Assembly: GCA_963845245.1 (NCBI GenBank)
Contig: CAWJRJ010000010.1
Location: 1 to 14,901, forward strand
Direction: 5' to 3'
DNA length: 14,901 bases
Source: Nitrospirota bacterium
GTDB lineage: Bacteria; Nitrospirota; JACRHJ01
Both the position numbers and the translations under genes were made by a program. Within the stretch, counting starts at the first letter, position 1. Every line of letters starts with the position of its first letter. The notes under the pieces are model-generated. The model was given only the letters and a program-made list of their open reading frames with translations, searched no databases and was not told where the DNA came from. Below, in pieces: positions 1 to 14,901 of this stretch.

Positions 1-2
1 AC

Positions 3-527
3 CGCGAGTTCGGCTTCCTGAAAGAGATACTCGTATCGCCCATCTCACGCTTCTCCATCGTATTCGGCAAGGCTATGGCCGGGACGACGATCTCGCTTTT
101 CCAGGTACTTCTCATGGTCATCTTCATACCCATACTCGGAATAAAGATAACCTTCGTGCAATTCTTCCTTCTCCTATTCTCGGCCGGCCTGCTGGCCTTT
201 GCGCTCACATCGCTTGGCATACTCATCGCCTCGCGGATGTCCTCATATGAAGGCTTCAACATCATAATGAACTTCCTTGTCATGCCCATGTTCTTCCTGT
301 CCGGCGCGATGTATCCCGTAAAGTTGCTGCCGCCCGCCCTTAAGATGATTACCCATTTCAACCCGCTCACATACGGCGTGGATGCGATGAAAAACGTGCT
401 GCTGTCAAACGCGGCAGGCAACGTAATGGGGCCTGAATACCCGCTCGGGCTTGACCTCGCGGTGGTATCCGGGTTCCTTGTGGTCATGGTGGTCCTTGCC
501 AACCATTCCTTCCGCAGGGCCGGCTGA
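3..527 (+). CDS. ABC-2 type transporter permease (DrrB/YadH-like), 5'-truncated by window edge
   Basis: Frame is open from base 3 (REFGFLKEILVSPISRFSIVFGKAM...), the typical ABC-2 permease 'DREFGFLKE..V.P' segment. C-terminal 'PMFFLSGAMYPV..LP' and 'NPLTYGVDAMK' motifs and several hydrophobic TM stretches follow. Confidence 0.9.
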   Translation, partial: REFGFLKEILVSPISRFSIVFGKAMAGTTISLFQVLLMVIFIPILGIKITFVQFFLLLFSAGLLAFALTSLGILIASRMSSYEGFNIIMNFLVMPMFFLSGAMYPVKLLPPALKMITHFNPLTYGVDAMKNVLLSNAAGNVMGPEYPLGLDLAVVSGFLVVMVVLANHSFRRAG

Positions 528-562
528 TTTCCCTGTCAGCAACTCCAAATAAATAAATATCC

Positions 563-591
563 TTGACCACTAACTTTTTATTAGTTATGAT
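563..591 (+). promoter_or_regulatory. Putative sigma70 promoter of the histidine kinase gene
   Basis: TTGACC (563-568), 17-nt spacer, TATGAT (586-591), in an AT-rich intergenic region 30 nt upstream of ATG 622. Confidence 0.6.
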
Positions 592-621
592 TATCGAATA
601 TTATAATAACCAGGGCCTTCC

Positions 622-3080
622 ATGGCGAACTTCTTCGAGCAACAGCTTGATTACCTGATTTTCTTCTACGGTACCTCCTTCTTTGTCCTGGCCACCGCCT
701 GCTATATCGCGCGTAAACGCGGTGACGATACCCTCCCCTGGGGATGGCTTTTTCTGTTCAGCATAGCCCACGGACTCAACGAATGGCTTGACCTGGCATA
801 CCTGAACCTGGGAGGCGGCACCCTTCTGACAGTGCTGCGAATTTCCGCGCTCAGCATTTCCTTTATTTTCCTGATGGAGTTCGGAATATCAGGCACCCTG
901 CCGAAAGCGACGGCATTAAAATGGCTGCCGTTGCTCGTTGGTATAACTCCGCTTGCCGGTTTTGCTGTCGGCGTTTCCGGCGCCCTTTCAATCTGCAGGT
1001 ACCTGCCGGGCCTCACCGGGGGCATATGGGCATCGGCCGCTTTCCTTGCTGCGGCCCGGAGCAAAAACAATGCGACTTTAAAGGTCACAGCGGCTATCAT
1101 GATGTTGTATGCGCTGGAAACGGGGCTCGTCGTTGATGCCGCTCCGTTCTTCCCGGCCTCCGTCCTGAATTTTGAGACCTTCTTCAAGGCCACAGGCATA
1201 CCAGATACAGTTTTTCAAGGCTGGCACGATCTATGCGGCAAGCGTGGCAATCCTGTTTTTTATCCAGAAACGGACCAGGGAGGAACAACGGCAGGCGCCT
1301 TTCCATTTTGTGATTACCTCTGGCTGCATTTCTTTTTATAATCCTTTCCGGATTTGTCTTCACTGCATACCTGGGCAGCCATGCGGAAAAAAACGCAAAA
1401 GATGACCTCCTTACAAGGACCAAGTCCGCAGCCGCAGCCATCAACCCGGAGCGCGTGGCAAAACTTACAGGAACCGACGCGGATTTAGGCAGCCCGGACT
1501 ATATACGGCTGAAGGAACAGGTGCAGAAGATAAAGGGGGCCAACCCGGACTGCCGCTACGTCTATCTTATGGGCCTCCGTGGGGACAAGTTGATATTCCT
1601 TGTGGACGCCGAACCAGTTGGATCCAAGAATTACACAGGTCCCGGATACGTGTATGAGGACAGCTCCCCAGCTTACGTAGCAGATTATAAGGCCGGCCGC
1701 ACAACCGTATATGACGTTTACGAGGACTCCTGGGGCACCTGGGTTACCGGCTCAGACTATATACGCGACAATAAGGGCCGTGTCCTGGCCCAGTTCAGCA
1801 TGGACGTGGACGCACACAACTTCGGGCAGGTTATCCGTGAATTCAGATTTTTCGGCATACTTATAACCTTTGGCGCACTCACTGCCTTCCTGATAGGGAT
1901 GCTCAGTTTTGACTCCTACCTGACCTGGCTGCGCGTCCGACAGACAGCGGAGCATGAAGCCACGTTAATGGTAGCCCAACAGCGTGCCGCCGGAGAGAAG
2001 AAGCTGCGTTCCATAACCAGCGCACTCGGTGAAGGTATCATAGTGCAGGACTTGGAAGGCGGGATAAGTTTCGTCAATCCTGAGGCAGAGAGGCTCCTGG
2101 GGTGGGATGAACACGAGATTACGGGGTCTTCCTTGTGTGACGTCCTTAAGCACCGGGACATGGAGAACAAACTTGTACCAGAAGATAGGACTGCGGCATA
2201 TTTATCTTTTACGACTGGAGATACACACAGAGCAGAAAAGGAGTATTTCACGAGAAAAGACGGTAGCGTCTTCCCGGTATCCTATGTTTCCTCGCCAATA
2301 GTCGAAGAAGGTAAGATAAACGGAGTTGTGTTGGCTTTTCAGGACATTACCGCGCGCAGGAACCTGGAAAGACAGAGCCGCGACTTCCTGGCCATGGTAA
2401 GCCACGACCTCAAATCGCCGGTAGCCATAATTCAAGGATACACTGAATTACTTGCAAAAGAGAAGTCAGGCATACTCGATGCAGACTCACTATCAATGGT
2501 GGACAGCATAAGAAAAAGTTGCGAAAAACTTTTGAGCCTATTAAACGACTTCCTCACCATATCGAGTTCCGAGGCAGGCGCACTGACGCTGCAGCAGGCT
2601 CCCGAGGATATAACTTCGCTTGTGAGAGAGACATGTTTCAACCTCTTCCCGTTTGCGGAAAAGAAAGGCCTCGTTATCTGTACTACTTTGCAGGAAGACA
2701 TCCCCCGCGCGATCATCGACAAGATGAAGCTCCAAAGGGCCATCAGCAACCTGCTTTCAAACGCCATAAACTACACACCCTCCGGCGGCTCAATAAATGT
2801 AGGTGCCTGCACTTCCAGTGTCGGTGATGAGAAATTTATAGTATTATCCGTAGCCGATACGGGCCCAGGCATCAAGGAAGACGAGTCAGAGAAGATATTT
2901 GAAAAATATTACCGATCTCGTCATAACTCAGGAGTCAAAGGGACCGGTCTTGGTCTGGCCATCGTGCGGGCCGTAGCAAAGGCACATGGCGGGAGCGCAA
3001 CCGTCGAGAATTCCACCCCCGGAGGCGCTACTTTCAAGATCACTATCCCACTCAAAACCCCCTCCACAACAGCCATTTAA
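622..3080 (+). CDS. Membrane sensor histidine kinase (multi-TM N-terminus, periplasmic Cache-like domain, PAS/PAC, HisKA, HATPase_c); two apparent +1 frameshifts (~1204, ~1314)
   Basis: ORFs 622-1341, 1172-1405 and 1455-3080 join into ~818 aa if one base is removed near 1204 (TGIP|IQFFKAG) and one near 1314 (FHFV|IPLAAFLFIILSGFVF...). PAS 'GEGIIVQDLEGGISFVNPEAERLLGW', H-box 'VSHDLKSP', N-box 'NLLSNAINYT', G1 'DTGPGI', G2 'GTGLGLAIV'. Confidence 0.85.
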
Positions 3081-3102
3081 GGCAAAATCATCCAGTTTGG
3101 GT

Positions 3103-3131
3103 TTGACATCCGGCCCCGGTTGTCCTAAAAT
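3103..3131 (+). promoter_or_regulatory. Putative sigma70 promoter of thiF-hydG
   Basis: TTGACA (3103-3108), 17-nt spacer, TAAAAT (3126-3131); -10 ends 10 nt before ATG 3142. Confidence 0.75.
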
Positions 3132-3141
3132 TCAGGTTACA

Positions 3142-3951
3142 ATGTTGTATTTAAGAATTAACGAGCGGTCCACCGAGTTCAGTGACCCTCCCAAGCTCAT
3201 GGAGGTTCGCGCCAAGTACAAGCCGGATGCCAACCTAGTAATATTGAACGGTTTTCCAACGACTGAAAACCCAATCCTTCAAGATGGCGACAACGTAATC
3301 CTTATAAGGAAGGGCGAACAGCCGTCCAGGGACGAGCTCGAAGCCCTCATGATGGCACGCCATACCCCCGGGGTGCATGAGAAGGTAAAGCTTGCGCGGG
3401 TGGGCATAGCGGGGGTGGGCGGCCTTGGCTCCTCTGTTGCAGTCGCGCTGGCCCGCGTAGGTATCGGCGAACTGGTTCTAGCGGACTTCGATGTAGTAGA
3501 ACCAAGCAACCTCAACCGTCAGCAGTTCTTTGTCGACCAGATAGGTAAACACAAGGTCGATGCGATGGAGGAGAACCTCCGTCGTATAAACCCTTATGTC
3601 AAGGTGGTCACGCACAGGGCCTTACTTGACGAAGCCAACATCCCAGGCATATTTTGCGGAGTGGATGCGTTGGTCGAGGCATTCGACCTGGCGGAGAGCA
3701 AGGCCATGTTGATTAACTCGATGGCTCGCTCATGTCCCGGCGTACCGGTCGTCGCCTCTTCAGGGGTGGCCGGCCACAGCCCATCAAACAGCATACAGAC
3801 AACTCCTTTCAGCGTTAATTATTATATCGTGGGAGATCAGGAGACCGAAGCGGCGGCAGGAGTGGGTCTCATGGCCCCGAGGGTAGGGATCGCTGCCCAC
3901 CACCAGGCGAACTGCGTCTTGAGGCTCCTGCTCGGAGAAACCGGAGAGTAA
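3142..3951 (+). CDS. thiF: Sulfur carrier protein ThiS adenylyltransferase ThiF with N-terminal ThiS-like ubiquitin domain
   Basis: 'VGIAGVGGLGS', 'DFDVVEPSNLNRQ', 'VEAFD', C-terminal 'GLMAPRVGIAAHHQAN' of the ThiF family-2 type. N-terminal ~60 aa ('YKPDANLVILNGFP...LQDGDNVILIRKG') is ThiS-like. The 3142 start is preferred over 2986, which overlaps the kinase. Confidence 0.9.
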   Translation: MLYLRINERSTEFSDPPKLMEVRAKYKPDANLVILNGFPTTENPILQDGDNVILIRKGEQPSRDELEALMMARHTPGVHEKVKLARVGIAGVGGLGSSVAVALARVGIGELVLADFDVVEPSNLNRQQFFVDQIGKHKVDAMEENLRRINPYVKVVTHRALLDEANIPGIFCGVDALVEAFDLAESKAMLINSMARSCPGVPVVASSGVAGHSPSNSIQTTPFSVNYYIVGDQETEAAAGVGLMAPRVGIAAHHQANCVLRLLLGETGE

Positions 3952-3958
3952 CAAAAGA

Positions 3959-5335
3959 ATGGCTGCACAAGATTTGGTTACAGACATCGCAGGCAGGGTC
4001 GAGGCGGCGCTATGCGCGGCAGGAAAGTACGATGCCTCAAGGCTTGAGGATATCCTCGCAAAGGCAGAACTGGCGGAAGGGCTTTCTCTCGAAGAGGCCG
4101 CATTCCTGCTTGCCATTGAAAACGAAGAGATGCTTGAGCCGGTATACAGGGCTGCGGCAAATGTCAAGGACCAGGTATTCGGCCCTCGCGTTGTCCTGTT
4201 TGCACCGCTTTACCTATCTAACTACTGCTCGAACGACTGCCTTTACTGCGGCTTCAGGCGCTCAAACGACAAGGCGCGGCGGAAAGCGCTCACCCTGGAC
4301 GAGGCTGTTGAGCAGGCGCGGATCCTTTCGGCATCCGGCTTTAAGAGGATCCTCCTTGTCGCCGGCGAGCATAATACCCACTCAGGGGTTGACTACCTGA
4401 CCGAGGCCGCGGATGCCATATATTCAAAGACCGACATCAGGATACTGCACGTAAACTGCGCGCCTCTTGAGACTGAAGATTTCAGGAGGCTGAAGTCGGC
4501 AGGCTACGGCGTTTACCAGTGTTTCCAGGAGACATACCACCGCGACACCTACTCGAAGATGCACCCGACCGGCCGGAAACGGGACTACGACTTCAGGCTT
4601 GCCGCGATGGACAGGGCTCTTGAGGCCGGCTTCGGTGACGTGGGCCTTGGCGCGCTCCTGGGGCTTTATGACCACCGCTACGACGTCCTCTCGGTGATCG
4701 CTCACTCACAACACCTCGAAGAACGCTTCGGCGCGGCAGCGCATACCATATCCGTCCCACGGCTCAGGCCCGCCGAGGGCGCGCCTCTAGCCACGCCGCA
4801 ATATCCTGTTAGCGACAGCGAGTTCAAAAAGATCGTCGCGGTATATCGCCTGAGCGTCCCGTATGCTGGCGTGGTGGTCACGACACGCGAGCCCGAGGCG
4901 CTCCGCGAAGAGACGCTGGACATCGGCGCGTCGCAGATATCGGCCGGCTCGTCCACCGAACCCGGAGGCTACGGGAAAGGCGTCCACAACACGGCACAGT
5001 TCGACACGAACGACGTAAGAGAGCTTTCAACTATGATGGACGTGATTGCGCGGAAAGGCCTGCTCCCTTCGCTTTGCACTTCCTGCTACCGAAGCGGCAG
5101 ACAAGGCAACGCGTTTCTGGATGTTGCATCCTCAGGTGCGATGAAAGACTTCTGTACCCCGAACGCCTTATTGTCTCTCAAGGAATACATACTTGATACG
5201 GCCTCGGAAGGCCAGAGGAAAGCGCTGGAAGACACTCTGGACAAGTTTGTCTCGTCCGTAGACGAACCGGCAAGAAGCGACCTCATGCGGAAACTTTCGC
5301 AGGTTGAAAAAGGCGGGCGGGATATCCACTACTAA
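3959..5335 (+). CDS. hydG: Radical SAM tyrosine lyase of the HydG family ([FeFe]-hydrogenase maturase HydG / ThiH-like)
   Basis: 'FAPLYLSNYCSNDCLYCGF' (CX3CX2C, 4226-4249), 'FQETYH', 'HTISVPRLRPA', 'SQISAGSST.PGGY', and C-terminal 'SLCTSCYR...DFCTPNALLSLKEY' (CX2CX22C, 5075-5155), which is characteristic of HydG and absent from canonical ThiH. Starts 7 nt after the thiF stop, with GGAGAG upstream. Confidence 0.85.
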   Translation: MAAQDLVTDIAGRVEAALCAAGKYDASRLEDILAKAELAEGLSLEEAAFLLAIENEEMLEPVYRAAANVKDQVFGPRVVLFAPLYLSNYCSNDCLYCGFRRSNDKARRKALTLDEAVEQARILSASGFKRILLVAGEHNTHSGVDYLTEAADAIYSKTDIRILHVNCAPLETEDFRRLKSAGYGVYQCFQETYHRDTYSKMHPTGRKRDYDFRLAAMDRALEAGFGDVGLGALLGLYDHRYDVLSVIAHSQHLEERFGAAAHTISVPRLRPAEGAPLATPQYPVSDSEFKKIVAVYRLSVPYAGVVVTTREPEALREETLDIGASQISAGSSTEPGGYGKGVHNTAQFDTNDVRELSTMMDVIARKGLLPSLCTSCYRSGRQGNAFLDVASSGAMKDFCTPNALLSLKEYILDTASEGQRKALEDTLDKFVSSVDEPARSDLMRKLSQVEKGGRDIHY

Positions 5336-7342
5336 TAGATTATAACGTCCTTGTCAAGCTGTACGGGGGGCAGCTCCCCGGAGGCATCCTTTACTCCAGC
5401 CATGTCTTCAAGGGATTTGACTGCGCAATTCCGCACCCGTTCGCTCGGGTCCTTCTCCGCCGACCTTTCAAGCTCGCCTCTTGAGCCGGGCTCCATGATC
5501 ATCCCCAATGCCAGGGCCACCTGCACCCTCACCGACTCGTCATCTTCAAACCGGAGCATGTCGGTAAGCGGCTTTGCCGAACTCTTGAGCCCGAGCATCC
5601 CAAGCGACCATGCAGCAATGCCGCGTATGCCGGCATCCTTGTCCTGCAGGGCCTCAACCAATACCTTTTCGGCGGTCGGCTCTTTTATGAAACCAAGCGA
5701 CCTCACCGCCTCCACCCTCACCCTGGGCTCAGGGTCTTTCGCCTGGGAGATTATGCTGTCGAAGGCCCTCTGGTCGCCAAGCTTGCCAAGCGCGCGCAGG
5801 ACCTCGACTCGCACGGGGATGACCGTCTCTTCGACAAGAAGCCCCGTCAGAGACGGCAGGCTTTCCGTACTGCCGACGTTGCCCAGCGCGCCGGCCGCCA
5901 GCCGCCTCACTTCGGAGTCTTCGTCCTTGAGTGCCCTGACGAGCGCAGAAACCGACTTTACCGATTTGATGTTCCACAAGGCCGCGGCAGCGGCCCTCCT
6001 GATATCGGCAGGCCCTGACGACAGACATTTAAGGAGCGGATCGACGGCCTCCTCGCTCTTTATCTGCCCAAGCACGGATATGGCAAGAAGCCTGAAGGCC
6101 GGGCTTTCCTCGTCCAGCATCATGCACAGCCTCTTCACCGCCTTCGTGTCCATACCGAAGGTCTTGGCAAGGTCTGTCTCCTTCTCCTGGAAGAACACCC
6201 CTTCCGGCATCTTCACGTGGGCCGCTTCCCATACGGCGTTGTCCTTGTCAAGCCGGACCGGGCCGAACGTCCTTGTAATGCGCCTGGAAGGGTCATCCCC
6301 GTGAAGCAGTATCTTGAGGAATGCGTTTGCGCCGTTTTCCTTAAGGCCTGGGTTGTACTTCACAAAGAACGTATAGACTTCGGGCGAAGCGACCTCAAGG
6401 GAGAACACCTCCGGCCCGAACGAGCCCTTACGGTCCATATCGAGCGAGCCGGCCGGTATTGCAGCCTCGCACAGCCACGCATCCGGGGCTTCATTGAATG
6501 TATGGTGGCCGAAGCTGTCCCACACATGCAGGTCGAAGTCGGCGGTCGGGCTGTCCCACGTGAGTATGGCCACCAGGTCCTTCGGTCTGGCGTCGAACGT
6601 GTTGACCCTTACCGACGCACTCCTGCCGGCATGGCCCGAGCGGTTCACCGCCTCCACAGCGAGTGTGTTGACTCCGGGTAAAAGAGCTGCATTCTGGCTC
6701 ATGACCCCTTTTTCAAAGGCAACCCTTTTAGGCATACCGTTTATGACAAGATACCCCTCGGATGCCTCTGAGCCGCTGACCTTTGCCGTTACGGTTATCA
6801 CCCTGTCGGACGTCAGGTCAAGCGATGCACCGTCCCTGGGTTCTGTTATAACCACCTTGGGGCCGCCCGGCAGAGGCCTTGTAGAAGACCTCCACCGAGT
6901 CCTTGCCGAGGTTGCCGTCAAGGTCCGCGGCCAGCGCAACGATCTTGTTGATGCCAGGCTCAAGGGCCAGGTCGGTCTCGAACACGCCCCCGTTTGCCGC
7001 CACGACCTGTGTCTCGTTGTTTACCCTCAGGAATATCTTGGTTATCCCACTGCCGACCCTGCCCCTTATCTTGCAGCAGGAGCGCTCGGAATTCCCTGGA
7101 GATGGCTCTATAATCGCGACCAGCGGGTCTTTCTTGGCAAGCCTTGCCGCCTTTGATATATCTTCCCGTTTTATGGAAAGGCCCCTCTCCTCCGGGACCG
7201 CCTTCTTTACGCCATCGATGGTCGGAAGCAGACTCAACCCTTCCCTCTCGACGGGCGCTACTTCACGCCTTTCCACTGCGAGGGCAGGGCAGGCGCTAAC
7301 GGCAGACAGGGCAACCAATATTGCGGCAACCAGTGTTTTCAT
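5332..7342 (-). CDS. Exported protein: signal peptide, two Ig-like domains, YfaP/DUF2135-like domain, C-terminal HEAT/PBS-lyase repeats; one apparent +1 frameshift (~6866-6880)
   Basis: ORFs 6818-7342 and 5332-6963 fuse to ~669 aa by removing one base (EVFYKASA|GGPKVVITEP). Signal peptide MKTLVAAILVALSAVSACPALA. Two 'P.V.I.EP..G...L.PG.N.I...A....G..G' units. 'DLVAILTWDSPTADFDLHVWD...GSLDMD...FGPEVF' resembles YfaP. About 8 HEAT-like units (e.g. 'DEDSEVRRLAAGALGNVG'). Confidence 0.8.
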
Positions 7343-9185
7343 CTATTGAGCCGTCTTCCCCGATGTCTCTTTTATCTTCTCTTCGACCTTCGCCAGGCTT
7401 CCGGCGGCCTTTTCGTTTCTGGGGTCGAGCTTAAGCACCTCGCGCCACTTCGCCACAGCTTCCCTGAGTTCGCCCTTTGTATAGTGCTCAACACCCTCGA
7501 GGTAGAGCCGCCTGATTTCCTGCTCGCTTGCGGCGGGCTGTGCCGCCTGCCTCTCCTGTGATGCGCGCGCGGCCTCGGACTCCTGGATGCGTGCGTTCTC
7601 GGCCGCTATCCTTGCCATGGTATCGTCGAGCCCCTTCTTTGCAGAAAGGTCTTCCGGGAGGTATTTCACAAGCCTCTCGTACGATTTCCTGGCAGCGGAA
7701 AGCCTGCCTTCATCAAATGCGGCCTTTGCCTTCGCTCTTTCATCCTGTATGCGGCCCTGGACCTGCGAGAGCGACTTGGCTGCGGGCCCGTCTGTAGGGT
7801 CCAGCGCGATTATCTTCTCGTACCAGCCGGACGCCTCTCCAAGCGCCTCCCTCTGCATGGCGTCTTTTGCCTTGGCCCTCAAGGACCCGACCTCGGCCGC
7901 GATACGTCCTGCCACTTCCTTTTCAAGCTCCGCCGCCTGCCTGTTGCCGGGGTAGGCCCTTACTATCTGCCCGCACAACTCTTTCGCCTCCGGTAGTTCG
8001 CCCTTTGAAAGTGCCGCCCTGACGGCAGGCGTTTTTTCGTTTATGTCCCTCTCGACGCGTGCCTTTGCCTCTTTCAGCCCTTTGGCGGCATCGGAATTTG
8101 ACGGGTCAAGCGATGCGGCCTTCTCGTACAAGGCTAAGGCAGAGCCAAGTTCACCCATTGCAGAGGCGTCACTGGCTTCTTTCAGGGCCGATTCCGCCGA
8201 TGCCCTCTGCGCCACTTCAAGCTGGGCCCGCGCACGGGACATATCCGGCCTAAGCTCCAGAGCCTGCCTGAACTCTGAGGCGGCATCCTCGTACCGTTCC
8301 AGCGAGAACAGGTTGTAGCCCCTGTAATAATGGGCATCCGCGTCGTTCGGCTTTATCCTTATCGCCCTCTCGAACATCTCTGCAGCCTGCCCTGCTTTGT
8401 CCCTGTTCTGGTAATCGACGCCTATGTTAAAGAAGGCGGTGGCAAGCGCATCCTTCGTCTTCTCGTCAGCCTGCTCTTTGAGGACGATCCTGTCAAAATA
8501 TGTCTTTGCAGCTGAGTAGCCGTTCTCTTTGTAATTTATCATGCCCATGTAATATAGGGCTTCGAAGTTGTCAGGGTCCGCTTCCAGCGCAGCCGAGAAC
8601 TCCTGGATCGCATCTGAGTAGCGTTCCTGCCCGTACCATATCCTGCCCCCAGCGTTCCTTATCAATGCCGTCGCCGCGGCATCTCCGGCCTTCGCCGACC
8701 TTGCCTTTTCAAGCTCTGCCAGCGCGGCAGCGAACTCCTTCTTTTCCGCCTTGACCAGCCCCATGTAATAACGGGCGTCACCGTCGTTTGGGTCCGCCTC
8801 CAGGGCTATTGCAAGGCTCTTCTCAGACCTGACGAAATCCTTGGCCTTGTAATACGCGCTCCCCAGGTTTGCGAATGCGGCAGCGAAGTTGAACTCCGAT
8901 GTTACCCCCATGCCGGCCGCAGCCTCCTTTGCCCTTGGCCAGGCTGTCGGATGCCTCATCGAACCTTCCGACCTTATAATATGCCAGGCCCGCATGGTAT
9001 TGCAGGTACGGGTCCTTCGGCTCCTTTGCGGCAAGCGGCGCAAGTATCCTCAGCGCCTCATCCGCCTTGCCCGCGCGCAGGTATGCAACGCCCTTTTCAT
9101 ATGAGCCGTCCGACGCATATGCAGATACGGCAAAAATGACGGCTGCAGCGACGGCTAAAAGTATCCTAAGACCTTGGTTTTTCAC
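7343..9185 (-). CDS. Exported tetratricopeptide repeat (TPR) protein; one apparent +1 frameshift (~8932-8936)
   Basis: GTG start at 9185 with SD GAGGT 5 nt upstream, signal peptide MKNQGLRILLAVAAAVIFAVSAYA. Fuses with ORF 7343-9043 by removing one base (DSLAK|AKEAAAG) to ~613 aa. Many TPR units ('ALEADPNDGDARYYMG', 'AIRIKPNDADAHYYRG'). Confidence 0.85.
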
Positions 9186-10575
9186 CGATTACCTCGTATA
9201 CCTGTTGCGGTTCGTTTTTCCCTTTGAGCATTACCTTTTCTTTTTTCTCGATCTCAAACTGCCCGCTCACCAGCCTGAACGTCTCTTCACTGATTATTAT
9301 GTCCTCTTCCCGGGATAGCGGGACAAGCCTTGCCGCGAGGTTTACGGCGTCCCCGACTACGGTATAATTCATGCGCGACTGCGAGCCCACATTACCCGCC
9401 ACTACAGTACCGCTGTTTATCCCTATACCGATATGCACCGGCAGCAACCCGCCTTTAACACGCCTCTCGTTGAACTGGCGCATGGCCTCACGCATCTTTA
9501 AAGCAGTCCTGATGCACCGTACCGCGTCGTCTTCCGCCTTGACCGGCACGCCGTATATGACCATCATGGCGTCGCCTATGAACTTGTCTATAAAGCCGCC
9601 GTTCTCGAACACGATATCGACCATTAGTGAGAAATATTCGTTCAGGAACGATATCACTCCTTTCGGGTCAAGCTTCTCAGCCATTGCGGTAAAACCTCTG
9701 ATGTCGGTGAACAATATGGTCACGTACCTGTGCTCGCCGCCAAGCTGAAGCTTGGTATGCTCTGGGTCGCCAAGCAGTTTGTCCGCGAGTTCCTTGCTCA
9801 TATAGCGTGCAAAACTGTCCTTGATAAGCTCCTTTTCGCGGAGCCCCCTTGCCATGTCGTTGAACGCCAGAGCCAGCTCGCCTATCTCGTCCAGCCTCTT
9901 TACCTCGACCTTCTGGTCCAGGTTGCCGCGCCCTATAGCGTTTACGCCCTCCACCAGCTCGTTGATGGGCGAGAAGGTCACCCTGGCAAGGGTGAATGCA
10001 CCTACGCCGCCCAGCAGAAGCCCGATCAGGGCCACGCCCCCGACCGTACGCCTCACCTTTGATGCAGCCTCTTCTATCACCGCGCTTGAAAGGCCCAGGT
10101 GCACCTGACCGAGCGTCTTTTTCTCCACCCCGGCAAGGGTGATCGGCACGGATATGTCGTAAAGGTCGTAGCCGTCAGGACCCTTTGCCTCCTCGATTAC
10201 ATAGCCGTCGCCTTTCTCAAGGGCCTTGAGGCCTGGCCAGGGCTGGTAGGGCGTACCGGACTTTTTTATGTCGCTGTGGGCGCGTACGACCCCTGAGCCG
10301 TCCACTATCTGGATATAGCTTACGCCCCTGTTGTTCATGGAGGATGTTATAAACTGGAAGAGGTACAGCTCGTCGCCTTTACCCACAAGGGCGTCCTCCG
10401 AGGAGCGGGCGATGTTCTTGGCAATCGCTATGCCCTTCTCCTTTATCTCAAATGAAAGGCTGCGGCGCATCTTGTCGGCCGTTACGGCCATAACGATGGC
10501 GCCGACTGCCGCGATGAGGACTATCGTGAACAGGGCCAGTTTTACTCGCAGGCTGAATATGGATTTTTTGGGCAT
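9166..10575 (-). CDS. Membrane-anchored class III adenylate cyclase (TM, periplasmic Cache-like domain, TM, HAMP, cyclase)
   Basis: Likely start MPKKSIFSLRVK at 10575. Two TM helices, HAMP 'PINELVEGVNAIGRGNLDQKVEVKRLDEIGELALAFNDMA'. Catalytic motifs 'ILFTDIRGFT', 'DKFIGDAMM', 'IGIGINSG', 'NYTVVGDAVNLAARL'. Confidence 0.92.
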   Translation of the reverse strand: MPKKSIFSLRVKLALFTIVLIAAVGAIVMAVTADKMRRSLSFEIKEKGIAIAKNIARSSEDALVGKGDELYLFQFITSSMNNRGVSYIQIVDGSGVVRAHSDIKKSGTPYQPWPGLKALEKGDGYVIEEAKGPDGYDLYDISVPITLAGVEKKTLGQVHLGLSSAVIEEAASKVRRTVGGVALIGLLLGGVGAFTLARVTFSPINELVEGVNAIGRGNLDQKVEVKRLDEIGELALAFNDMARGLREKELIKDSFARYMSKELADKLLGDPEHTKLQLGGEHRYVTILFTDIRGFTAMAEKLDPKGVISFLNEYFSLMVDIVFENGGFIDKFIGDAMMVIYGVPVKAEDDAVRCIRTALKMREAMRQFNERRVKGGLLPVHIGIGINSGTVVAGNVGSQSRMNYTVVGDAVNLAARLVPLSREEDIIISEETFRLVSGQFEIEKKEKVMLKGKNEPQQVYEVIGEKPRS

Positions 10576-10695
10576 ATGCGCACCGGCAGGATTATCGATT
10601 ACTGTATATTTTTTACACGGATAAACTACCATAACAGGCATGGAAAGACAACACTTAACTGCCGACCACATTGGAAGAGGCGGGAGAAAAATACC

Positions 10696-10724
10696 TTGAT
10701 AAAAACCCGTCCGGCATCTATACT
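10696..10724 (+). promoter_or_regulatory. Putative sigma70 promoter of thiS (leaderless architecture)
   Basis: TTGATA (10696-10701), 17-nt spacer, TATACT (10719-10724), 6 nt, then ATG 10731; no SD. Confidence 0.7.
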
Positions 10725-10730
10725 TTTCAT

Positions 10731-10928
10731 ATGAAAATTCAGGTGAACGGAAATGAGATGACCATGGATGAGGGAGCTACGGTTGCCTCTCTGCTTGAAG
10801 GACTGGGGCTTTCGGACAAGAAGGTAGCCGTGGAGCACAACATGGTTATCCTCGCAAGGGACGGCTACGGCACTACATTGAACGAAGGCGACGTGATTGA
10901 GATAATAAGCTTTGTCGGCGGAGGTTGA
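10731..10928 (+). CDS. thiS: Sulfur carrier protein ThiS
   Basis: 65 aa, MKIQVNG...VAVEHN...LNEGDVIEIISFVGGG with C-terminal di-glycine; classic ThiS pattern. Confidence 0.95.
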   Translation: MKIQVNGNEMTMDEGATVASLLEGLGLSDKKVAVEHNMVILARDGYGTTLNEGDVIEIISFVGGG

Positions 10929-10944
10929 ACCATCAGGGGGAGAC

Positions 10945-11922
10945 ATGGAGAACATAGCCAGACGATTTTTTTCTAATTATCTTCGGATCGACAAGGAGCT
11001 TATCATAATACTGCTCCTTGTGACAATCACGGCGTTCATTTTCTTTTTTGTGTCAAACCAGCGCGCGTTCCTTAATTTTTTCTACGTACCGGCCCTCCTA
11101 GGCGCATATTTCTACGGTAAACGCTATGCCGCGCTAGCGGCCATTTTCTCGATTATCCTCATCGGCATAATAGCATATGCCTATCCGGATACCTTTATCA
11201 CAAAAAATGATAGCGAGTTGTATCGTTGGCTTGACATCGGCACATGGGGAGGCTTCATGCTGGTCACGGCATACCTTATGGGCCACCTTTACGAAAAAAA
11301 GGAACAGACCGCACGCGAGATAAAGAAGACCTACCAGGGGATCGTAGAGATGCTCTCGTTGATCATTGATGCCGTCGACCAGCAGACCCAGAGCCATTCA
11401 TACAGGGTATCAATGATAGCTGAACGGCTCGCTATGAAGGCAGGCTGCTCTACCGAAGAGATCGAGAACATAAGAGTCGCCGCGCTTCTTCATGACCTGG
11501 GGAAGATAGGCGTCAGCAGCGAGATACTAGCAAAGGTCGGCAAGCTCTCAGAGGAGGAACGCGCGCATATAAAGACGCACACTGCAAACGCGGTGGACAT
11601 GCTCGAACCTGTAGGAGGAAAAGTAATTGAACTCCTCCCGCTCATATTGAACCACCACGAGAGTTACGATGGGACCGGCTACAATGCTATGATAGGCGAG
11701 AAGATACCCATAGGGGCACGGATAATCGCAGTCGCAGACGTCTATGACGCACTCACCTCAGACAGGCCATACCGAAAGGCCCTAAGCCCGTTCCAGGCAA
11801 AAAGCGAGATTGTTGTCAATTCGGGGATACGGTTCGACCCTCATGTCGTCAAGGCATTCGAGCTTTCATTCCCTGAGTTCGAGACCGACTCCCACCTTTA
11901 CTCCTTAAAACTCGGCCTTTAA
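10945..11922 (+). CDS. Membrane-bound HD-GYP-family phosphohydrolase (putative cyclic dinucleotide phosphodiesterase)
   Basis: SD-like AGGGGGAG before ATG 10945, about 4 N-terminal TM helices, then 'HSYRV', 'LLHDLGKIG', 'HHESYDGTGYN', 'IPIGARIIAVADVYDALTSDRPYRK'. Confidence 0.9.
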   Translation: MENIARRFFSNYLRIDKELIIILLLVTITAFIFFFVSNQRAFLNFFYVPALLGAYFYGKRYAALAAIFSIILIGIIAYAYPDTFITKNDSELYRWLDIGTWGGFMLVTAYLMGHLYEKKEQTAREIKKTYQGIVEMLSLIIDAVDQQTQSHSYRVSMIAERLAMKAGCSTEEIENIRVAALLHDLGKIGVSSEILAKVGKLSEEERAHIKTHTANAVDMLEPVGGKVIELLPLILNHHESYDGTGYNAMIGEKIPIGARIIAVADVYDALTSDRPYRKALSPFQAKSEIVVNSGIRFDPHVVKAFELSFPEFETDSHLYSLKLGL

Positions 11923-11941
11923 TTACACTTTTCAAATTTTC

Positions 11942-11975
11942 TGTTAAAATAGTTTTTATTTATTAAAAATGGAGG
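11942..11975 (+). promoter_or_regulatory. Putative extended -10 promoter and ribosome-binding site of pgi
   Basis: TGtTAAAAT (11942-11950) in an AT-rich spacer; GGAGG (11971-11975) 8 nt before ATG 11984. Confidence 0.55.
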
Positions 11976-11983
11976 CCAACGTT

Positions 11984-13415
11984 ATGGCAGACTGGAAAGA
12001 CCAGAAATGGCAGGTCGGCATGGAGATAAAGTACGACTTCAACTTCATGATGTCGGAGTTCATCGGGCCGGAGAACGGAGTAGTCAAAGGTGAGGTGGAC
12101 GCGCTCGCGGACAGGGCTGATGCGGTGCACAAGGATCTGACCGAAAAATCGCAGGGATGGCTCGCTTCCGTTTTTCGACCTCCCCTACCAGGACACATCC
12201 GCCATAAAGGAACTCGCGGACGAGCTTGCAGGCGAGTTCGAAAACTTCGTCCTGCTCGGCATCGGCGGCTCTGCGCTGGGGCCGATTGCGCTACACACCG
12301 CGCTTCGGCACCCGCACCACAACATCCGCACAAAGAAGGAGCGTGGCGGCAGGCCCAGGATGTTCTTCGTGGACAATGTTGACCCCGACCAGTTCTCAAG
12401 CCTCATGGAATCGATAAAACTCGATAAGACCGTCTTCAACGTGATTACCAAGTCAGGCGGCACGTCCGAGACGATGGCCCAGTTCATGATAGCCCGGGGC
12501 CTTGTAAAAAAGGATCTGGGGAAGAAGGCTCTCAAGAAGAACTTCGCATGCATCACAGACCCGGAGAAAGGGAACCTGCGGAAGATAGTCCGGGACGAGA
12601 AGCTTCGCTCCCTTGAGGTCCCGCCACTGGTGGGTGGCAGGTTCTCTGTGTTCACCCCTGTCGGGCTCCTCTCTGCGGCGGTCTCTGGCATAGACATCGA
12701 CGAGCTGCTTGCCGGTGCGGCCAGCATGGACATGCGCACATCCAGGCCCGGCATATGGGAGAACCCGGCATATCTCTCGGCAGCTCTCCAGTACCTTGCG
12801 GACACCAAGAAGGGCAAGAATATCTCGGTGATGATGCCCTACTCCCAGGCGCTAAAGGACGTCGCGGACTGGTACAGGCAGATATGGGCGGAGTCGCTCG
12901 GTAAGAGGCTTGACCTTCAGGGCAATGTGGTGCATACCGGGCAGACGCCGGTAAAGGCACTCGGCGCGACCGACCAGCACTCGCAGGTGCAGCTTTACAT
13001 GGAAGGCCCGAACGACAAGACGTTCACATTCCTGCGTGTGGAGGAGTTCGATACCAAGGTGACCATCCCGAAGGACTTCACGGACATCCCCGGCGCGGCG
13101 TTCCTTATAGGCAAAAGCCTGAACCAGCTTATAAACGCGGAGCAGGCGGCGACCGAGACGGCGCTGATGTCGGCGGGCAGGCCGTGCGCCACAATCACGG
13201 TCCCGGCCGTGAACCCGTTCACGCTTGGCCAGATACTCTACATGTTCGAGGTCCAGACGGCCTTTGCGGGCGGGCTGTACGGCATAGACCCGTTCGACCA
13301 GCCGGGCGTGGAAGAGGGCAAGCTCCTCACCTACGCGATGATGGACAGGCCGGGGTACGAGAAAAAGAAAAATGAACTTGAGAAGATAAAGAAGAAGGCG
13401 GGGTATGTAATTTAA
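11984..13415 (+). CDS. pgi: Glucose-6-phosphate isomerase; one apparent +1 frameshift (~12144-12148)
   Basis: Removing one A from the A5 run gives ~476 aa: ...RRDGSLPFFDLPY...VLLGIGGSALGP, 'ITKSGGTSET', 'VGGRFSVFTPVGL', 'QIWAESLGK', 'GATDQHSQVQLY', 'PFDQPGVEEGK'. Confidence 0.95.
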
Positions 13416-13422
13416 TGAACAA

Positions 13423-13451
13423 AGGGGGCCTTCAAGCCCCCTATTCTTTTT
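13423..13451. terminator. Probable bidirectional intrinsic terminator between convergent pgi and rsmD
   Basis: 7-bp stem AGGGGGC (13423-13429) / GCCCCCT (13436-13442), 6-nt loop, followed by ATTCTTTTT on + and TTGTT on -. Confidence 0.75.
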
Positions 13452-14008
13452 CTAAAAGCCTGTACACACTCACGACTGTATCGCCGTAGTTATAATCCTT
13501 CTTCTTGTCTAGACGCCCTATCTCTTCCGGGGCGTGGTATTTCTTAAAATGCTCGAAAACAATTATTGCGTCTGCCGAAAGGTACACCGCGTCCTCTGCA
13601 CCAAGCAGTTCCATCGTATCCATGCCTACCTTCTCATGGTATGGCGGGTCAACGAACACGATATCGAACGGCCCAAGCTCCGAGGCGGTCTTCTTAAGGA
13701 ACTGAAGCACGTCCTTTGTCACAACGGCGGCATGATCGCGGTAGCCCAGTGCTTCGAGGTTCTCGGATATCAACCTGGTGGACTTCACCGAGCTATCTAC
13801 GAACACCACCCTGGCTGCGCCGCGGGAGAGCGCCTCAATCCCAACCGCGCCCGGTGCCCGCAAAAAGCTCTAGGAAGCTCGCATCGTCCACATTGCCGCC
13901 AATTATGGAAAACAGCGCCTCGCGCACCTTGTCCGATGTCGGCCTGACGCCGCCGTGCTTCGGAGGCTTTATCTTGCGCCCCTTTGATTCACCGCCTGAT
14001 ATCCTCAT
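13441..14008 (-). CDS. rsmD: 16S rRNA (guanine966-N2)-methyltransferase RsmD; one apparent +1 frameshift (~13850-13852)
   Basis: ATG at 14008 gives MRISGGESKGRKIKPPKHGGVRPTSDKVREALFSII...FLELFAGTG; removing one base continues AVGIEALSRGA...'DIVFVDPPY'...'YGDT'; ~188 aa. Confidence 0.93.
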
Positions 14009-14014
14009 GCCGCT

Positions 14015-14044
14015 ATTCTAAAGGCTGGCTTAAGCGCAAGTCAA
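14015..14044 (-). promoter_or_regulatory. Putative sigma70 promoter of rsmD (leaderless architecture)
   Basis: Minus strand: TTGACT (14044-14039), 18-nt spacer, TAGAAT (14020-14015), 6 nt, then ATG 14008; no SD. Confidence 0.65.
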
Positions 14045-14086
14045 GCGCGATGTTGTGTTAATACTTAAAGACGGGCGGATGCGGGA

Positions 14087-14896
14087 CTACTGTTTGGGAA
14101 ATTCTAGGAGGTTTGACAGTTTGACGCTCTCGATAGCGATTGCATGTGGCGGGTACATCTTCCTTCGTCCATTATTTTCCATCACACCTATGCTGAACGT
14201 CTTCGGCGGCGTAATAACCTTGCCGTCGAAAGTGGTAAAGCCGTGCATGTACGAATCGAAGGTTTTTTCTGGCTCGTAACCTGGGAATTTACCTCCATTC
14301 CTTGGCCCCCTCCTTCTGTTGACGGGGATGATGTTTCCGTTGACGTAGACCCTGTCGTCCGAGGGTTTCTTACCCCAGGTCACGGTGATTTTTATCTTGG
14401 TGCCGGTCTCTGGAGGCCCTCCGGAAGACGGGGAATAGTTGAAACCCACACCCCCGAAGGCGTCTTCCATTATCATTGGGTACAGTATGAAACTTCCGAC
14501 AGTAACGTCGTGGTCATTCAAGCCGACCGAAAAAATCGGTACACTGTTTTCGTCGTATATTGTAAAGAGGGCCTCTATTTCCTTCCCAAGCTTCTTAAGC
14601 AGTACTTTGTCCACAACTACAGTGTTGATCTCAAGGGTGCCCTGCTCCGTATCCAGTATTTCAGCGTTATACGAGTAGCAGTCCCCATCCCTGGATGCCG
14701 TCCAACCGACTGGCGGGGGGAAATCCGGGCTTTTTACCGGCTGGCTGCCTGAGTGGGCAAGCAGCGGGGCCGACACAACCCCGTCCTTAAACTCGAATAT
14801 GGTTTGTTTGAAAATGTAGGATGGTGGGGCCTCCTCCGCGAAGGCCCCACTTGCCGTAATCAACATAAATAAAATCAATAGCAGGCTTTTAATCAT
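14087..14896 (-). CDS. Exported hypothetical protein, possible LamG/concanavalin A-like jellyroll
   Basis: 269 aa ORF with signal peptide MIKSLLLILFMLITASGAFA; beta-rich; motif series 'QGTLEI', 'ITVTWG', 'RVYVNG', 'FSIG', 'IESVKLSN'. Confidence 0.65.
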   Translation of the reverse strand: MIKSLLLILFMLITASGAFAEEAPPSYIFKQTIFEFKDGVVSAPLLAHSGSQPVKSPDFPPPVGWTASRDGDCYSYNAEILDTEQGTLEINTVVVDKVLLKKLGKEIEALFTIYDENSVPIFSVGLNDHDVTVGSFILYPMIMEDAFGGVGFNYSPSSGGPPETGTKIKITVTWGKKPSDDRVYVNGNIIPVNRRRGPRNGGKFPGYEPEKTFDSYMHGFTTFDGKVITPPKTFSIGVMENNGRRKMYPPHAIAIESVKLSNLLEFPKQ

Positions 14897-14901
14897 ACCT
14901 A

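Follow-up and report, generated by a model that had tools for sequence, protein, structure and literature searches.

A putative tyrosine lyase of the radical S-adenosylmethionine (SAM) type, here called P0001, is encoded directly after a thiSF fusion gene in a 14,901-nucleotide stretch of DNA (contig CAWJRJ010000010.1 of assembly GCA_963845245.1, positions 1 to 14,901; hereafter the window) from a metagenome-assembled genome (MAG) of a Nitrospirota bacterium. Both ThiH and HydG cleave tyrosine to p-cresol and dehydroglycine; ThiH is devoid of the C-terminal cluster domain, and its dehydroglycine goes to ThiG. The present analysis indicates, with a probability of about 0.8, that P0001 is a ThiH-equivalent dehydroglycine source with a HydG architecture, that it belongs to a 'long ThiH' lineage of the thiamine pathway, and that the maturation of [FeFe]-hydrogenase is not its function. 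The ThiH-equivalent role is the most likely one because of the gene context, the riboswitch found in relatives, the paralogy with true HydG, and the fact that no further ThiH and no ThiO was found in the genome. An earlier note, made from the sequence alone, had suggested that a HydG was recruited as the dehydroglycine source for thiazole synthesis. The source part of this suggestion is supported by the same four lines of evidence, while the recruitment part is not shown, since the thiamine-linked proteins fall outside the maturase clade in two quick trees with a weak backbone and have invariant residues of their own.

The thiSF-P0001 gene pair and the architecture of P0001

As shown in Table 1, the two genes are separated by a gap of only 7 nucleotides. 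In the thiSF product, a ThiS-like domain spans the first ~58 residues in Pfam, and the remainder is ThiF. The product exceeds the cut-offs of two models of ThiF fam2, namely 159 for NF006395, on which it scores 276.7 bits, and 152.2 for TIGR02354, on which it scores 239.9 bits. The short gap and the single promoter-like site directly 5′ of thiSF suggest that the two genes are co-transcribed. No terminator-like site was found after this promoter-like site and thiSF. Five promoter-like sites were observed in the region against 1.2 expected.

Table 1. Coordinates of the features discussed; the lower six rows are loci of other genomes
Feature	Position	Strand	Evidence
Promoter-like site TTGACA-17-TAAAAT directly 5′ of thiSF	3103..3131	+	Consensus match only, 11/12
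thiSF: ThiS-like ubiquitin-fold domain fused to ThiF (fam2) adenylyltransferase, 269 aa	3142..3951 (from ATG to the end of the stop codon)	+	Translation; PF14453 and PF00899
P0001, 458 aa: putative radical SAM enzyme, a tyrosine lyase of the HydG type ('long ThiH')	3959..5335 (from ATG)	+	Profile models, structure match, AlphaFold model
CX3CX2C radical SAM cluster motif, CSNDCLYC, C90/C94/C97 of P0001	4226..4249	+	Translation; invariant in alignment A2
His262 of HTISVPR, aligned with the dangler-iron His ligand of HydG	4742..4744	+	Translation; alignment to 4wcx
CTSC-X22-C, predicted auxiliary [4Fe-4S] motif, C373/C376/C399 of P0001	5075..5155	+	Translation; invariant in alignment A2
Separate ThiS sulfur carrier of 65 aa with VGGG as its C-terminus	10731..10928	+	Sole PF02597 match of the genome (47.6 bits)
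HypC-radical SAM and HydG module, L050 (G018)	6700-9420		
HypC-radical SAM and HydG module, L061 (G026)	5528-8399		
HypC-radical SAM and HydG module, L156	6442-9607		
HypC-radical SAM and HydG module, L157	405-3127		
HypC-radical SAM and HydG module, L158	1918-4621		
HypC-radical SAM and HydG module, L159	4870-9452		

P0001 consists of Radical_SAM and BATS domains in Pfam, and translation confirmed the 7-nucleotide spacing and the three sequence motifs that the earlier note had read from the letters. The profile comparison proposed there was performed with the NCBIfam models; P0001 scores 426 bits on the HydG model TIGR03955 (cut-off 312.15) and 331.2 bits on the ThiH model TIGR02351 (cut-off 380). 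The HydG structure 4wcx matches P0001 over its full length with 421 bits and 43% identity, and another HydG structure, 4rtb, matches it with 378 bits. The ThiH structure 7pd1 from Thermosinus carboxydivorans matches residues 42-369 only (210 bits). An AlphaFold 2 (AF2) model of P0001, built on 36 sequences, has a predicted local distance difference test score of 92.8. It superposes on chain A of 4wcx with a template modelling (TM) score of 0.95 and a root-mean-square deviation of 1.5 Å over 462 columns. The TM score against 7pd1 is 0.90 over the ThiH chain, which covers the barrel only. As judged from sequence and model, the architecture of P0001 is that of HydG, with a triosephosphate isomerase-type barrel as its radical SAM core, the predicted CX2CX22C site in its C-terminal domain, and the conserved histidine.

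P0001 thus resembles HydG in its full-length homology, the CX3CX2C motif, the C-terminal CX2CX22C motif, and the dangler-iron histidine. What it has in common with ThiH (TIGR02351; E. coli b3990; 7PD1) is the radical SAM and BATS core and its place in the pathway and operons beside thiS, thiF, thiG, thiE, and thiC, as in the thiCEFSGH operon of E. coli. It differs from ThiH in being ~90 residues longer, with a complete auxiliary cluster domain of the HydG type, and in the residue His262, whose position is occupied by V, A, L, Y, or I in five short ThiH proteins. The closest homologues of P0001 are named as Nitrospirae or Nitrospirota proteins, and the source names of close relatives are split between HydG (NCBI) and 2-iminoacetate synthase (JGI).

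Thiamine genes around P0001 and its relatives

The genome containing the window (2.88 Mb in 37 contigs; 90% complete with 5.2% contamination) was searched for the hydrogenase and thiamine genes. No HydA was found in this 90% complete genome, the best HydF match reaches 92 bits where the cut-off is 325, and the sole real match to HydE is P0001 itself. Neither ThiO nor a second gene of the ThiH/HydG family was found in the genome. Every gene of the thiazole branch is present save a recognised dehydroglycine source; thus, P0001 is the only candidate in the genome. The thiazole genes are scattered over three places, since thiSF-P0001, the free-standing thiS gene, and thiG-thiE-thiC are separate from each other. 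The earlier note was right that the window has no hydA, hydE, hydF, or thiG, but it had missed this thiS gene, which lies 5.4 kb 3′ of the lyase gene and shares 17 nucleotides with the beginning of an HD-GYP-type gene (10912-11922).

Is the pairing of thiSF and the lyase gene common in the phylum? ThiH, HydG, and ThiO were called at the thresholds of this study in a sample of 61 genomes, including the present one. A match to the HydG model was found in 27 of them at E<=1e-30 and in 21 above the cut-off. Only one genome (G055) has HydA and HydF; its HydG gene adjoins an ammonia-lyase gene and the HydF gene and thus encodes a real maturase. In the family of the present genome, 10 of the 11 other members carry the lyase gene, and the ThiSF fusion lies directly 5′ of it in all 10. 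No ThiSF was found within 1.5 kb of the lyase gene in any locus from the other families of the sample. In families f2 and f7, the lyase gene adjoins thiG-thiE-thiC. ThiG was found in 56 of the 61 genomes, and ThiO exceeded the cut-off in 13, all of which belong to families f4 and f10. Family f6 has a short ThiH joined to ThiG as a single protein of 770 residues, with thiE following (L060 860-3172; G016), and two other members of this family (L041 and L043) have an unfused short ThiH with a Cys-rich tail, CRRC...C.C...C.

I performed a pattern scan of 185,579 species genomes, one genome per species, and found 585 relatives. The neighbourhoods of the best 80 were counted by probing their flanks with proteins drawn from the loci of this analysis. 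Thiamine genes lie beside the lyase gene in 57 of the 80 loci (ThiG in 49, ThiS in 51, ThiSF in 9), and a HydE-like gene and/or a HydF gene lies beside it in 19. No locus has both kinds of neighbours, and four have neither (three from Acidobacteriaceae and a fragment at a contig end). The usual gene order is lyase-thiS-thiG-(gap)-thiE-thiC, and in 51 of the 80 loci a thiS homologue separates the lyase gene from thiG. The thiamine-linked loci belong to MAGs of Nitrospirota, Thermodesulfovibrionia, Deltaproteobacteria/Thermodesulfobacteriota, and Deferribacteres, and to the cultured Moorella mulderi and Neomoorella stamsii. In 9 of the 11 loci scanned with Rfam, a thiamine pyrophosphate (TPP) riboswitch was found directly 5′ of the lyase gene or its operon; the remaining two belong to the family of the window. 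In three loci (L071, L078, and L094), the order is ThiSF-lyase-thiS-thiG-thiE-thiC, which ties the thiSF-lyase pair of the window to the thiazole genes.

This gene order also bears on a second proposal of the earlier note, that the HydG-type enzyme and the ThiS/ThiF relay act in an undescribed pathway to a sulfur/CO/CN metallocofactor, here taken to have no connection with thiamine. The pair does stand alone in the family of the window, with no thiG beside it and no riboswitch, and its HydG hallmarks are intact. However, the same pair runs into thiS-thiG-thiE-thiC under a TPP riboswitch in the three loci, the ThiF part is of the thiamine-type fam2, and the ThiG of the genome requires dehydroglycine, for whose supply no other candidate was found. 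The pair belongs to thiamine operons in these loci, and the metallocofactor proposal is not supported; it is regarded as very improbable.

The paralogy was assessed in 50 genomes behind the loci, consisting of 46 thiamine-linked genomes, two of Acidobacteriaceae, and two controls with HydE/F-linked genes. HydA was found in eight of them, namely six thiamine-linked genomes and the two controls. Each of the six has two genes of the HydG family, a true HydG with 642-670 bits and a thiamine-linked protein with 430-453 bits. In Moorella mulderi, the high-scoring HydG gene adjoins a HydE-like radical SAM gene. The genomes without HydA mostly have a single HydG-family copy of 393-465 bits. Short ThiH was not found in the 48 non-control genomes and hence does not co-occur there with the long HydG-type form; a ThiH-level match was found in the Heliobacterium control only.

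These distributions speak to another rival explanation, that P0001 is an ordinary maturase HydG whose hydA, hydE, and hydF genes were missed in an incomplete MAG and whose thiF neighbour is there by chance. The HydG score above the cut-off and the 90% completeness and 5.2% contamination of the genome are in favour of it. Against it stand the rarity of HydA and HydF in the phylum sample (1 of 61 genomes versus 21 with the lyase gene), the ThiSF adjacency in 10 of 10 family members, and a bit score within the 393-465 range of thiamine-linked proteins and below the 500-670 range seen for the remaining copies; moreover, P0001 does not have the residues that all 19 HydE/F-linked proteins share, as described below. 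The earlier note had named hydA/E/F with a separate thiH or thiO in the genome, and a thiF adjacency not conserved in relatives, as marks of such a maturase, and none of these was found. This explanation is considered the least probable of all.

From the sequence, the fold, the gene context, the riboswitch control in relatives, the paralogy, and the lineage-specific residues, I infer the following pathway for the ThiH-equivalent role. P0001 would presumably carry out the tyrosine cleavage known from ThiH and HydG, which yields p-cresol and dehydroglycine, and would hand the dehydroglycine to ThiG. ThiG would then join dehydroglycine, 1-deoxy-D-xylulose 5-phosphate, and the ThiS thiocarboxylate to yield the thiamine thiazole. 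Formation of the thiocarboxylate would involve both the neighbouring ThiS-like/ThiF protein and the free-standing ThiS.

Signature residues, the second metal site, and phylogeny

The CX2CX22C motif is conserved in 76 of the 80 relatives, the exceptions being a frameshifted fragment and three Acidobacteriaceae proteins with different spacing, and the histidine motif is conserved in all 80. Thus, the motifs in P0001 are not there by chance. Among the 57 thiamine-linked relatives, 56 keep the three cysteines and the histidine. It was revealed that six alignment columns (162, 164, 185, 225, 306, and 372 in the numbering of the window protein) separate the thiamine-linked proteins from the HydE/F-linked ones almost perfectly. 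I162, H164, V185, F225, and V306 are each found in 98-100% of the thiamine-linked proteins (n=50), and L372 in 90%, whereas R162, N164, T185, I225, I306, and F372 are found in 19 of 19 HydE/F-linked proteins. P0001 has I, H, V, F, V, and L at the six positions. A second aligner with extra sequences gave the same split; the HydE/F-linked proteins agree at the first five positions in 15 of 15 cases, and position 372 is F in 12 and Y in 3. It was also considered whether F225 is a general ThiH-like residue, and this was rejected because only three of five short ThiH proteins have F there.

A few proteins have a mixed signature. L122 and L140, from MAGs with HydA, are linked to thiE-lyase-thiS-thiG-thiC and yet are nested in the maturase clade; they have R162, H164, V185, I225, V306, and F372. 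A similar mixed signature was found in the Acidobacteriaceae proteins L112, L117, and L118, which have another Cys spacing and neither thiamine nor hyd neighbours, and in whose genomes no HydA was found.

In the AF2 model, residues 162-166, 183-187, and 304-307 form barrel strands, and H262 opens the strand 261-265. The signature positions are thus predicted to face the barrel channel. According to a review of HydG (PMC10114646), a channel links its two metal sites and the fragmentation of 2-iminoacetate may occur inside it; HydG without the C-terminal domain becomes a ThiH-like enzyme that releases mainly 2-iminoacetate; and the fate of dehydroglycine, kept intact or split to CO and CN-, is the last grey area of the mechanism. 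The only role described there for the histidine is that of a ligand to the dangler iron. In the thiamine-linked proteins, the change of the polar Arg, Asn, and Thr into Ile, His, and Val could spare dehydroglycine for ThiG, and the five replacements R162I, N164H, T185V, I225F, and I306V may keep it from splitting to CO and CN-.

Why would a probable thiamine enzyme keep the second metal site? In six genomes with a thiamine-linked gene (G066, G067, G068, G080, G083, and G098), no HydA, HypF, or [NiFe]-hydrogenase large subunit was found, and all of the cysteines and the histidine are kept. Two of these genomes are nearly complete (G098, identical to G004, 97%; G066, identical to G029, 96%). Thus, the conserved site is not explained by hydrogenase maturation. 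The auxiliary cluster and the histidine, being conserved, should have some function in the thiamine pathway; as a guess, they might hold or pass on the labile dehydroglycine.

One may consider instead that the enzyme is bifunctional, delivering dehydroglycine to ThiG while its auxiliary cluster with the His-bound iron would still make CO, CN-, or both, or else an Fe(CO)x(CN) unit. The CO ligand of [NiFe]-hydrogenase, which has no known anaerobic source, would be a possible use. The conservation of the three cysteines and the histidine in the thiamine-linked relatives is compatible with such a second product; in addition, the genome of the window has [NiFe]-hydrogenase large subunits, and close HydG relatives adjoin [NiFe]-hydrogenase genes in other lineages. 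However, the six genomes mentioned above keep the motifs without any of these hydrogenase genes having been found, the genome of the window has HypF and HypE for cyanide (and HypC), and barrel positions at which HydG has invariant polar residues are occupied by others. Bifunctionality is therefore judged to be unlikely, though less so than the metallocofactor and maturase explanations.

Two quick maximum-likelihood trees, rooted on short ThiH, were constructed with 84 rows and with 61 rows including the E. coli and Heliobacterium ThiH; the fragments L099, L103, L110, L114, and L115 were excluded. In both trees, all of the long proteins form one clade with a support of 97-98. The HydE/F-linked, [NiFe]-linked, and Acidobacteriaceae proteins, together with L122 and L140, form one subclade (support 98 and 91), and the other thiamine-linked lineages lie outside it. 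P0001 belongs to a ThiSF-linked clade with a support of 100. In summary, P0001 differs from HydG in that its genome shows no HydA, HydE, or HydF and its neighbours are thiamine genes rather than hyd genes, in the six replaced positions, in the presence of its lineage as a second paralogue in genomes with HydA, and in its position outside the maturase clade in both trees, for which the approximately unbiased (AU) test was not decisive.

Several observations weigh against the ThiH-equivalent role of P0001. P0001 passes the HydG model and falls below the ThiH one, and it keeps every known hallmark of HydG, including the dangler-iron histidine, none of which a plain ThiH needs. The thiG gene lies on a contig (contig 37) other than that of P0001, and the window has no match to any Rfam family, nor was a TPP riboswitch detected anywhere in the genome. 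In the phylum sample, 20 of the 61 genomes have ThiG without any ThiH, HydG-type gene, or ThiO above the thresholds; thus, the phylum must have a further dehydroglycine source that went unrecognised, and the argument by elimination is weak. Finally, the backbone of the trees is weak, and the AU test does not reject a grouping of the clade of the window with the maturase clade (difference in log likelihood 11.6, p 0.229). Thus, the origin of HydG from a long ThiH is a reading of the trees, not a result.

A further and more tentative proposal concerns the site itself. It is conceivable, though doubtful at present, that the auxiliary [4Fe-4S] cluster, the histidine, and perhaps a fifth iron work in thiazole biosynthesis, either in the hand-over of dehydroglycine or in sulfur or electron transfer, and that the long ThiH is ancestral to the CO/CN chemistry of HydG. 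This is suggested because the site is kept in hydrogenase-free genomes, the thiamine lineages lie outside the maturase clade, and the polar barrel residues are replaced.

Other observations and implications

A conserved module was found in other genomes, in which a fusion of HypC (PF01455) and a radical SAM domain, 421-448 residues in length, adjoins a high-scoring HydG of 500-563 bits (Table 1). In G018, the two are joined in a single protein of 906 residues. Next to the module are genes for both [NiFe]-hydrogenase subunits (large and small), for the HycI protease, and for HypC. No HydA was found in the genomes with this module. HypF was not found in any of six genomes of the Nitrospirota family f8, five of which are 95-100% complete, nor in any of four Desulfobacterota MAGs with the module, all four of which have matches to the [NiFe] large subunit. 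One possibility is that the module makes the CN and CO ligands of [NiFe]-hydrogenase from tyrosine by radical SAM chemistry and so replaces HypF. It is absent from the genome of the window, and no paper on it was found among the Creative Commons (CC)-licensed papers of PubMed Central (PMC) and bioRxiv. In many of the related genomes G070-G102, one or two in-frame TGA codons occur within [NiFe] large-subunit genes, which would be expected for selenocysteine-containing [NiFeSe] hydrogenases. In the genome of the window, contigs 27 and 28 have two near-identical sets of genes for the [NiFe] large subunit, a HycI-like protease, and HypF, which may represent a true duplication or, given the 5.2% contamination, a mixture of strains.

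On contig 37, 5′ of thiG, an RNase J sequence is spread over three consecutive open reading frames (ORFs) in different frames (L003 2-1443), reflecting either a broken gene or assembly errors of the MAG. A 200-residue ORF between thiG and thiE has no match in Pfam or NCBIfam and no homologue in the 80 loci. An ABC-2 transporter is encoded 5′ of thiSF both in the window (1-3080) and in G007 (L057 5411-11476); a PAS histidine kinase gene lies 5′ of thiSF in the window and 3′ of it in G007. In the region 11969-13415 (plus strand) of the window, the match to glucose-6-phosphate isomerase starts at profile position 127 in the ORF 12360-13415, and the overlapping ORF 11969-12382 on its 5′ side has no family match in Pfam. 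A frameshift or a divergent N-terminus may account for this gap.

The thiamine-linked proteins apparently represent a widespread and undescribed variant, an enzyme in the ThiH role with the full architecture of HydG. No description of a HydG-type enzyme in thiamine operons was found among the same CC-licensed PMC papers and bioRxiv, and the available parts of a ThiH structure paper (PMC9046217), the ProPhylo paper (PMC3226654), a Journal of Biological Chemistry paper of 2024 (PMC11736057), and two reviews, including that on HydG, make no mention of one. HydG is treated as an indicator that [FeFe]-hydrogenase is matured, and the NCBI model gives the name HydG to the whole thiamine-linked lineage. 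Thus, many genomes without [FeFe]-hydrogenase are mislabelled, while the label given by JGI corresponds to ThiH. For enzymology, a protein that would combine the pathway role of ThiH with the complete second metal site of HydG is a natural comparison for how dehydroglycine is kept or split. For evolution, the lineage would provide a concrete intermediate between ThiH and HydG.

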